Shown here piece after piece: positions 12,730 through 15,700 of a stretch of DNA of 64,000 bases. The notes beneath the pieces are model-generated. The model was given only the letters and a program-made list of their open reading frames with translations, made no database searches and was not told the origin of the DNA. The stretch covers positions 67,148,001 through 67,212,000 of the forward strand of contig NC_086097.1 of assembly GCF_963921235.1 (NCBI RefSeq). The letters run 5' to 3'. A program made the position numbers and the translations under genes. Position 1 is the first letter of the stretch; each line of letters begins with the position of its first letter. This stretch comes from Mobula hypostoma. Lineage: Eukaryota.

Positions 12730-15700
12730 ATGGTTGTTAGGCTGAGATTCTAAATTGGAGAAAGACAAATTCTGATGGGAGTCAGAAAGGATCTGGCAGG
12801 TGTGGTCTGGGATAGAATTTTTTTTATGGGAAAGGGATGGTTGACTAGTGTGAGGCCCTCAAAAGTGAAATATTTGTGTGTACAGAGTTTTTATGTTTCT
12901 GTTAGAACAAAAGGCAAGGCTTACAGATATAGGGAACTTTGGTTTTCAAGGGAAATTGAGGCCTTGATGAAGATGGAGGAGGTGTATATGCAGGAAGGAA
13001 CAAATGAGGTACTTGAGTATAAGAAATGTACACGTTAGAAATCAAGAGGGCTAAAAGAAGGCATGACGTTGCTTTGGTGGACAAGGTGAAGGAGAATCCC
13101 AAGGGATTCCACAAGTAAATTCAGAGCAAAAGGATTGCAAGGGACAAAATTGGCACTTTTGAAGATCAAAAAATTAGGGCCTGACAAGGTATTCCCTTGG
13201 ACCGTGTTGGAGACTAGTGCAGAAATTGCAGGGGCTCTATTAGAGATATTTAATGTCTCTTTAGCAATGGGTGAGGTGCTGAAGGACTGGAGGATAGCAA
13301 ATGCTATTCCTTTGTTTAAGAAAGGCTGGGGAAAATGTAAGCTGAGAATTTATAGGTACTGTGGCATGCAAAATTTTGAGCACCCTGGTCAAAATTTCTG
13401 TTACTGTGAATAGCTAAGCGAGTAAAAGATGAACTGATTTCCAAAAGACATAAAGTTAAAGATGACACATTTCTTTAATATTTTAAGCAAGAAAACTTTT
13501 TTATTTCCCTCTTTTACAGTTTCAAAATAACAAAAAAGGAAAAGGGCTGGAAGCAAAAGTTTAGGCACCATGCATGTCAGTACTTAGTAACACCCCCTTT
13601 GGCAAGTATCACAGCTTATAAATGCTTTTTGTAGCCAGATAAGAGTCTTTCAATTCTTGTTTGGGGGATTGTCTCACATTCTTCCTTGCAAAAGGCCTTC
13701 CAGTTGGGTGAGATTCTTGGGCCGTCTTGCATGCATTGTTCTTTTGTGGTCTATCCACAGATTCTAGATGATGCTTAGGTCGGGGAACTGTGAGGGCCAT
13801 GGCAAACCCTTCAGCTTGCACTTCTTGAGGTAGTCCATCGTGGATCTTGAGGTGTGCTTAGGATCATTATCCTGTTGTAGAAGCCATCCTCTTTTCATCT
13901 TCAGCTTTTTTTTTACAGACAGTGTGATGTTTGCTTCCAGAATTTGCTGGTATTTAATTGAATTCGTTCTTCCCTCTACCAGTAGATGTTCCCCGTGCCA
14001 CTGGCTACAACACAAGCCCAAAGCATGATCGATCCACCCCCGTGCTTAACAGTTGGAGAGGTGTTCTTTTCATGAAATTCTGCACCCTTTTTTCTCCAAA
14101 CATATCTTTGCTCATTGCAGCCAAAAAGTTCTATTCAAAAAGTTCAAAGGAACATCTAAACAAGCCTGATGCATTTTGGAAACAAGTCCTATCCAATAGA
14201 ACTTTTTGGCTGCAATGAACAAAGGTATGTTTGGAGAAGAAATGGTGCAGAATTTCATGAAAAGAACACCTCTCCAACTGTTAAGCACGGGGGTGGATCG
14301 ATCATGTTTTGGGCTTGTGTTGCAGCCAGTGGCACGGGGAACATTTACTGGTAGAGGGAAGAATGAATTTAATTAAATACCAGCAAATTCTGGAAGCAAA
14401 CATCACACCATCTGTAAAGAAGCTGAAGATGAAAAGAGGATGGCTTCTACAACAAGCTAATGATCCTAAGCTCACCTCAAAATGCATTATGGACTACCTC
14501 AAGAGGCACAAGCTGAAGGTTTTGCCCCCCGACCTAAACATCATCGAGAATCTGTGGGTAGACCTCAAAAGAGCGGTGCATGCAAGACGGCCCAAGAATC
14601 TCACAGAACTAGAAGCCTTTTGCAAGAAAGAATGTGAGAAAACCCCCCAAACAAGAATTGAAAGACTCTTAGCTGGCTACAAAAAGCGTTTGCAAGCTGT
14701 GATACTTGCCGAAGGGGGTGTTACTAAGTACTGCCATGCAGGGTGCCCAAACTTTTGCTTTGGGCCCTTTTCCTTTATTGTTATTTTGAAACTGTAAAAG
14801 ATGGAAATAAAAAAAAAATTCTTAAATTATTAAAGAAATTTCCCATCTTTAACTTTATGCCTTTTGGAAATCAGTTCATCTTTTATTCGCTTAGCTATTC
14901 ACAGTAACAGAAATTTTGACCGGGGTGCCCAAAATTTTGCATGTCACTGTACATTATTGGAAGATATTCTATGAGACAAGTTAGAAGTTTTTCAATAGAT
15001 GGGGTCTGATTATGATAGTCACCATGGCTTTGTATGTGGTAGGTTATGTTAAGCATTCTAGAGACTTTTGAGTTGCTTACCTGGAAAGTTGATGAAGGAA
15101 AGGCAGTGGATGTTGTCTACGTGGACTTTAGCGAGGCCTTTGACAGAGTCATACATGGGAGGCTGGTCAAGAAGATTCCGTCACTTGGCATTCAGGTTAA
15201 GGTAGTAAATTCAATTGAACATTGGCTTCATGAGAGAAGCCAGAGTAGTAGTAGATGGTTTCCTTTCTGACAGGTAGTCTGTGACTAGTGCTGTGCCTCA
15301 GAGATTGGTGCTGGGTCCATTGTTGTTTGTCATCTATATCAATGATCTGGATGATACTGTGGTAAACTGGATCAGTAAATTGGCAGCTGACACCAAGATT
15401 GGAGGTATAGTGGACAGTGAGGAAGGCTATCAAAGCTTGCAGTGGGATCTTGACCAGATGGAAAAATAGACTGAAAATTGACAAATGGAGTTTAACGCAA
15501 ACAAGTGAGTTGCATTTTGGGAGGATAAACTAGGGTACAGTGAATGGTAGGGCACTGAGCAGTGCATTAGAACAAAGGGATCTGGAATAAACTTCCATAA
15601 TTATTTGGAGGTGGCATCGCAGGAAGATGAGGTCATAAAGAGAGCTTGTGGTACATTGGTTTTCGTGAGTCAGAGTTTTGAGTGAGGAATTGGGATGTTG

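Follow-up and report, generated by a model that had tools for sequence, protein, structure and literature searches.

A fold-back Tc1 element with two right ends in a SNX6 intron of Mobula hypostoma, most likely an inert relic

Tc6 of Caenorhabditis elegans is a fold-back element of 1.6 kb; its arms measure ~765 bp and its ends are Tc1-like. To our knowledge, Tc6 has no clear transposase homology. Rpmar49 and Rpmar17 of Rhodnius prolixus are described as non-autonomous mariner lineages in which the 5′ part has been replaced by the 3′ part; both are DD34D mariners of 900-970 bp, with parents of 1.3 kb and 13 and 140 independent copies, in the account given by Filee et al. 2015 (PMC4678618). Rearranged mariner MITEs of Drosophila, including Dromar7, 11, 28 and 36, make up seven sub-lineages, all of which carry two left ends and are reported to have amplified (Wallau et al. 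2014, PMC4161770). In maize, the MuDR derivative Mu killer has two promoter-side ends and a proven dominant silencing effect (Skibbe et al. 2012, PMC3440606). For inverted duplications of other kinds, fold-back junctions are reported to carry typically templated insertions and inverted matches of 2-8 bp (Hermetz et al. 2014, PMC3907307), and two-switch events are described that extend imperfect inverted repeats and copy only a few bases (PMC3820800). TcMar elements are reported to have expanded in rays and skates (PMC12361510).

Here we analyze a stretch of 64 kb of Mobula hypostoma (contig NC_086097.1 of assembly GCF_963921235.1), hereafter the window. By mapping SNX6 proteins from stingray, skates and sharks, we found nine SNX6 exons in the window, all on the + strand. 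SNX6 of skates and sharks is 92-96% identical to the exon at 59410-59553, and that of the stingray Hypanus sabinus matches it at 100%. A 5.8-kb intron of this gene (10661-16490, + strand, bordered by exons 10565-10660 and 16491-16596) holds a fold-back Tc1 that is most likely an inert relic. The account that we consider probable as a whole is that the element derives from an abundant Tc1 family of rays, Sleeping Beauty-like (IR/DR, DD34E) in type, is non-autonomous and by now dead, and was formed when a template switch in one full-length copy replaced its 5′ half with the inverted 3′ half.

The two arms, at 13359-14135 on the - strand (777 bp) and 14195-14949 on the + strand (755 bp), are inverted copies of one another, as the original prediction had it, with 694 of 754 letters alike in a pairwise alignment. 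The divergence by substitutions and a short deletion that it described is equally evident: the alignment contains 60 mismatches (39 transitions and 21 transversions) and 28 gap columns, the Kimura distance is 0.085, and the right arm has one 15-bp gap near 14526. Mismatches are slightly scarce near the center (the first 200 bp hold 9 of the 60; p 0.027 in a single test picked after looking). Because the arms diverge by 8%, an assembly artefact from a folded read can be ruled out; contigs of sequencing run X1 also match the flank exactly, without any difference over 15108-15328 and 15428-15828.

Both arms cover codons 157-340 of the transposase followed by a right terminal repeat of ~212 bp, within the 208-227 bp found in relatives, and the locus has the IR/DR features of the parent family. 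In the right arm the stop codon of the transposase lies at ~14732-14734. The right repeat (14738-14949, + strand) has direct repeats at 14741-14758 and 14923-14940, which are 182 bp apart, and joints from 14918-14921 to 14739-14741 are seen in contigs of run X5. In its left copy (13359-13570, - strand, inner limit approximate), the inner and outer direct repeats are likewise recognizable, so that all four are present. TA stands at both ends (13357-13358 and 14950-14951), in agreement with what had been predicted; the right TA lies at the family boundary in contigs of run X11, and the left one is a target-site copy or an inverted copy of the right TA. The symmetry of the element stops one letter outside TA. 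At the terminus itself the left end has CTG and the right end the canonical CAG, so the left end carries one change.

Neither the Tc1 5′ end nor a DNA-binding domain gave a match at the locus, and the predicted lack of both therefore stands. For the transposase part the claim had been that each arm consists of a right terminal repeat and the C-terminal DDE part; the repeat and the 3′ part are indeed there, but the catalytic triad is not intact. D153 is absent from both arms because they start at residue 157, and is missing from the loop as well; the right arm carries a change at D244, and the left arm a stop in place of E279. With frameshifts in both arms, stops in the left arm, no D153 and no DNA-binding domain, the element has no coding capacity.

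The 59-bp loop between the arms (14136-14194) reads [15 protein letters not shown] starting at 14147. It had been taken as transposase-derived, and this holds for ~45 of its 59 letters: single-copy transposase sequence of codons ~136-150 occupies 14146-14190, in the same sense as the right arm (+ strand). The remaining letters belong to the two junctions. Junction 1 (14136-14145, + strand) is an exact 10-bp repeat of 14122-14131, 4 bp away, and has the form of a templated insertion copied locally. Junction 2 (14191-14194, + strand) is a 4-bp filler that replaces 18 bp (codons 151-156, including the catalytic D153) and ends exactly at the stem base. Contigs of the family diverge from the locus behind 14190 and continue with these 18 bp (36 contigs in run X1 and 43 in run X5). 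The deletion stops at the same base as the left arm, that is, at the stem base, which suggests a later loss within the loop. Since neither inner junction is a transposon end, autointegration as the origin of the locus is ruled out.

The best full-length protein match to the element is P0001, a transposase of 340 aa with the triad D153, D244 and E279, in which 34 residues separate D244 from E279. From residue 157 on, the arms are 89% (178 residues) and 87% (180 residues) identical to P0001, and the loop matches its residues 136-150. SB100X (5cr4) is the only solved relative of P0001 at E below 1e-10, and Sleeping Beauty, as described in PMC8151067, has the same triad numbering and IR/DR ends. 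Identity between P0001 and the salmonid-type P0013 is 62%, and that between an arm and a Monopterus protein is 74%. Relatives of the ray family (P0001, P0002, P0174) include proteins from a stingray record, at 89% identity over part of the length, and from a bony fish, at 74-79%, which is high for such distant lineages; horizontal transfer is possible. Searches with P0001 found no relative in viral contigs, the relatives in contigs of metagenomes and genomes had at most 68% identity, and a 24-letter loop pattern gave 0 matches in metagenome contigs. Among the Tc1 loci collected, L081-L093 encode animal-type transposases on short contigs of bacterial genome records (L081 with 99% identical 218-bp terminal repeats), probably from contamination of the bacterial assemblies. 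The metagenome contig L005 has an inverted repeat directly behind its Tc1 frame (2615-3284, 75% over 682 columns).

To place the locus within its family, we compared contigs of four sequencing runs over 14080-15900, which covers one arm, the loop and the right flank; X1, X5 and X11 are DNA runs and X9 is RNA only by our guess. The depth of the arm is ~9,000-34,000 times that of a single-copy contig in the four runs, a summed depth that gives no copy number and shows only that the family is very large; contig depth roughly suggests ~10,000-30,000 copies. Behind 14951, 186 contigs of run X11 end loosely and leave into flanks unlike each other, which marks this position as the family boundary.

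Variants of the two arms relative to this family point to a single origin. We compared 25 right-arm variant places, a selected sample from the 40 listed of 234 difference rows, and found the family letter in the left arm at 21, the right-arm letter at three and another letter at one. The letters common to both arms are 14635, 14934 and 14816, the last of which is in an A run and was discounted as unreliable; each of the two reliable ones occurs in at most 1.7% of X1 depth, and the product of their shares is ~0.0003. Both one-letter deletions listed (after 14346 and after 14733) occur in both arms. Similarly, at the protein level, four of 175 residues differ identically in both arms from P0001 and P0139, with 14 and 18 private differences. 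The rare changes common to both arms indicate that one arm served as the template for the other, with the copied stretch reaching to within 16 letters of the tip or closer, as 14934 shows. They bear out two predicted features, the two right ends, to that same distance, and an origin by strand switch within one copy, for which the templated 10-mer at junction 1 speaks as well. The few shared changes compare with ~30 private changes per arm, so most of the decay followed the copying; we infer that the fold-back form arose early, while the Tc1 family was spreading.

A further feature of the element is the position of its axis. The loop spans parent codons ~133-156, with its midpoint at codon 144-146, and the geometric center of the element falls at codon 144.0-145.2 in seven of nine relatives with at least 44% identity to P0001. 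These nine are loci with a terminal repeat pair and 44-57% protein identity, and the 44% cut-off was chosen after the table had been seen. The two exceptions are L006 (center at 141) and L008 (center at 172, with an insertion); in more distant Tc1 loci most centers lie at ~codon 150-170. Before later deletions the fold-back element would have measured 1620 bp, compared with 1626-1640 bp in L001, L002, L007 and L081; parent center and length are thus taken from relatives and not from full-length DNA of the family itself. If the axis were free to fall anywhere between the terminal repeats, the chance of such a match is ~1-2%, for one case judged post hoc. The axis at the parent center suggests a length-conserving template switch, possibly in place. 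Alternatively, the match could be due to chance, or a mobile unit could have been selected for keeping the parent length.

For the template switch that we favor, the following course is proposed. DNA synthesis from the right end of a full-length copy would pass the middle of the element and, by inference, switch template at a short inverted match, for which parent codons 132-135 and 158-160, judged only from the protein frames, offer a putative imperfect pair. Priming would occur twice, leaving the 10-bp repeat at junction 1, and the copy's own 3′ half would then be copied back out to the tip in place of the 5′ half, giving a product of parent length (~1620 bp) with two right ends. Afterwards 18 bp would be lost at the stem base and the arms would decay independently. 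A broader form of this idea is that long-TIR Tc1 elements are turned into whole-element hairpins in place, at constant length, by a switch during which the paired terminal repeats hold the register, in effect a ~780-bp quasi-palindrome correction. We regard this generalization as doubtful. If it is true, independent fold-back junctions would cluster at the element center throughout ray genomes, the origin of rearranged long-TIR elements, described as elusive, would be accounted for, and introns would hold a burst-time source of transposase double-stranded RNA.

Whether the element was formed at the SNX6 site or arrived there bears on the surrounding CR1 LINE, which lies on the + strand and has a reverse-transcriptase frame before the element (13159-13356) and further sequence after it (14952-16153). 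The host CR1 does continue on either side as predicted, but not without interruption: compared with the only intact CR1 copy in the window (47454-49673), 29 bp are missing across the site between two anchors. Elsewhere the host CR1, an old copy, has two gaps of at least 5 bp in 1168 columns relative to the intact copy, which puts the chance of a gap near the site at ~10%. The loss may predate the insertion or may be a scar at a rebuilt left end, and fits neither version cleanly. The original prediction also held that the element had inserted as a unit; TA and the exact ends fit this, but a rebuild in place would keep both as well, and 29 bp of CR1 are gone. We give a jump of the fold-back unit to the SNX6 site and a rebuild of the fold-back at that site the same weight, each a little short of an even chance.

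Other repeats lie in the window. The CR1 copy at 47454-49673, in a SNX6 intron, is young, with a reverse-transcriptase frame open for 740 codons. Also in a SNX6 intron, 43113-43778 is a second hairpin with 271-bp CR1 arms that are 100% identical and a 124-bp AT-rich loop; it may come from a very recent inverted duplication or else be an artefact of assembly. A short element at 7339-7675 has three copies of one terminal repeat, two in one orientation (7339-7380 and ~7499-7556) and the third in the opposite one (7618-7675); the end looks mariner-like. An older decayed Tc1 of another family is at 45663-46480 (48% identity to P0001 over residues 209-340). Finally, two near full-length LINEs of other kinds are on the minus strand at 25021-29492 and 50773-56199; in both, the first frame and the endonuclease/reverse-transcriptase frame are interrupted at several points.

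As part of the SNX6 pre-mRNA, the element is thermodynamically expected to form the long hairpin that the original prediction envisaged. The predicted fold of the whole element has -1218 kcal/mol with 91% of bases paired, and that of the central 531 nt has -418 kcal/mol (0 of 100 shuffles as good, z = -49). There are 11 perfect arm runs of at least 21 bp, the longest of 63. In run X9, three contigs match the right flank without difference at a depth of 2.5-3.9, compatible with intronic RNA or with DNA, and none of the X9 pieces listed spans the hairpin. A-to-G differences make up 30 of 156 places in X9, compared with 33 of 170 in X1, 31 of 184 in X5 and 32 of 188 in X11; X9 thus has no excess, in a comparison in which thousands of other copies swamp the locus. 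In animals, as described in PMC9989829, the targets of ADAR are mainly young repeats, including DNA transposons, so editing of the SNX6 hairpin is a fair expectation, and an ordinary one.

Two other histories have to be weighed against a template switch that left an inert relic. Two full-length copies could have inserted nearby in opposite orientation, with a deletion between them leaving two 3′ halves, the simplest model proposed for Rpmar49 and Rpmar17 (PMC4678618). It would explain why 29 bp of the host CR1 are lost, as the stretch separating two TA sites, and why the arms diverge as much as family copies do. However, it would require two separate copies to share both one-letter deletions and two or more rare substitutions (the share product of ~0.0003 given above), and it does not account for two arms that begin at the same base or for the axis at the parent center. 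A local jump of the same copy would retain the shared letters, yet leaves the axis unexplained; we find the two-insertion model improbable. More weight, although still less than an even chance, goes to the idea that the locus belongs to a mobile sub-family of long-TIR elements that carry two right ends and, as in Rpmar49, were amplified in trans by the parent's transposase, with tens to hundreds of copies, or thousands if a signal at 14141 represents junction 1. The exact ends, TA on both sides and four recognizable direct repeats fit such a unit, as does a transposase that was active at the time of origin, given the few shared and ~30 private changes per arm. One X5 contig with a depth of 249 (77 for a single-copy contig) leaves out one letter at 14191, implying that it spans junction 2, and in the DNA runs X1, X5 and X11 this position has 54-149 times the depth of a single-copy contig. 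As a percentage of arm depth, 14191 reaches 0.30 in X1, 0.33 in X5, 0.014 in X9 and 1.0 in X11, and the private indel 14818 reaches 0.29, 0.075, 0.18 and 1.06; the two are equal in X1 and X11, which argues against a sub-family, though 14191 is four times higher in X5. The shared marker letters make up 0.8-6.6% of depth (up to 1.7% in X1 and 6.6% in X11), values within or close to the 0.05-8.6% seen at 15 private places. Accordingly, descendants of the fold-back event would account for no more than a few percent of the family, a share that could still correspond to tens or hundreds of copies. None of the contigs listed over 14080-15900 spans junction 1, and in a weak test on 167 transposase-like proteins (120 listed of 642 matches) no frame running from the antisense arm into the loop was found. 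At 14141, G replaces A in 170,294 of 182,638 of depth in X1, 278,116 of 297,466 in X5, 8,348 of 8,526 in X9 and 321 of 691 in X11. G thus accounts for 93-98% of a very high depth in the first three runs, but not in X11. This may be an edge effect of full-length copies placed one letter off, or may reflect a large sub-family with a related junction 1, which is disfavored because the shared letters are rare, unless the arms of this copy were re-copied later. As to whether two right ends would serve a transposase, published results point both ways: in the data reported in PMC4505599 they work 26-fold better than the natural pair for Mos1 but 3-fold worse for Mboumar-9, and in Sleeping Beauty an enhancer sits in the left repeat (PMC8151067), which is absent here. 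The claim that the element stayed mobile is not borne out, with no second copy found and the event-marking letters in only 1-7% of depth.

In a further alternative reading, read-through from SNX6 would give transposase double-stranded RNA that was cut, then or now, into small RNAs and so shut the family down, in the manner of Mu killer, which has the same layout of two copies of one end and an inverted transposase part within reach of a host transcript (PMC3440606). The persistence of the 11 perfect runs of at least 21 bp, the early origin during the spread of the family and the exact flank contigs in X9 are in keeping with this. On the other hand, the family reached its rough ~10,000-30,000 copies and so was not halted early, intronic inverted pairs of the family are presumably common, and the arms have decayed without homogenization, as their 60 mismatches attest. 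The read-through hairpin model is disputed for Mu killer itself in its own literature (PMC3440606), and long hairpins in animal introns are described chiefly as ADAR targets (PMC9989829). A role of this kind in the history of the family seems to us very improbable, and as a present function Mu killer-like silencing is unlikely because the arms are old and the dead family is large. The likeliest present effect is a passive one, a long intronic hairpin that ADAR would edit, with no selected function.

As a single relic the SNX6 fold-back is of little weight, since half-replaced elements have already been published for mariners of Rhodnius and Drosophila. It does extend the form to an IR/DR Tc1 of a vertebrate, here with two right ends, and its junction is legible enough to allow an argument about mechanism. 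The centered axis is the one point that specialists may find surprising, and fold-back points could be counted over the more than 10,000 copies that the family has in rays. In the Bari paper (PMC4877112) we found nothing on a fold-back form, and in the open-licence literature we found no report of such a form in cartilaginous fishes or of a centered axis.

Among the systems described above, Rpmar49 and Rpmar17 resemble the SNX6 element in having two right ends, long inverted arms with transposase 3′ sequence, TA at the ends and no coding capacity, as far as they are described in PMC4678618. The SNX6 fold-back differs from them in being a DD34E IR/DR Tc1 of parent length, with arms of 755-777 bp, in a vertebrate. 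The Drosophila MITEs share with it the replacement of one half by the inverted other half and unusually long terminal repeats, of an origin called ‘elusive’ by the authors (PMC4161770); their two left ends and amplification set them apart. In Mu killer an inverted partial transposase duplication with two copies of one end is likewise within reach of a host transcript (PMC3440606), but the likeness is one of layout only, as the SNX6 fold-back has two 3′ ends and is old. The parent family is of the Sleeping Beauty type (PMC8151067) in its 340-aa transposase with D153, D244 and E279, its ends of ~210-230 bp with two direct repeats, and TA; unlike elements of that type the locus has no left end, and the family is distinct from the salmonid-type proteins found. 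In mechanism the nearest parallels are the fold-back inverted duplications of Hermetz et al. (PMC3907307), which also have a single-copy loop between inverted arms and a templated insertion at the junction, and quasi-palindrome switches (PMC3820800), in which an imperfect inverted repeat is likewise extended. The former events, as reported, are on the scale of chromosomes and the latter on that of a few bases, whereas the SNX6 fold-back involves ~780 bp, has transposon ends and is symmetric about the center of the element.
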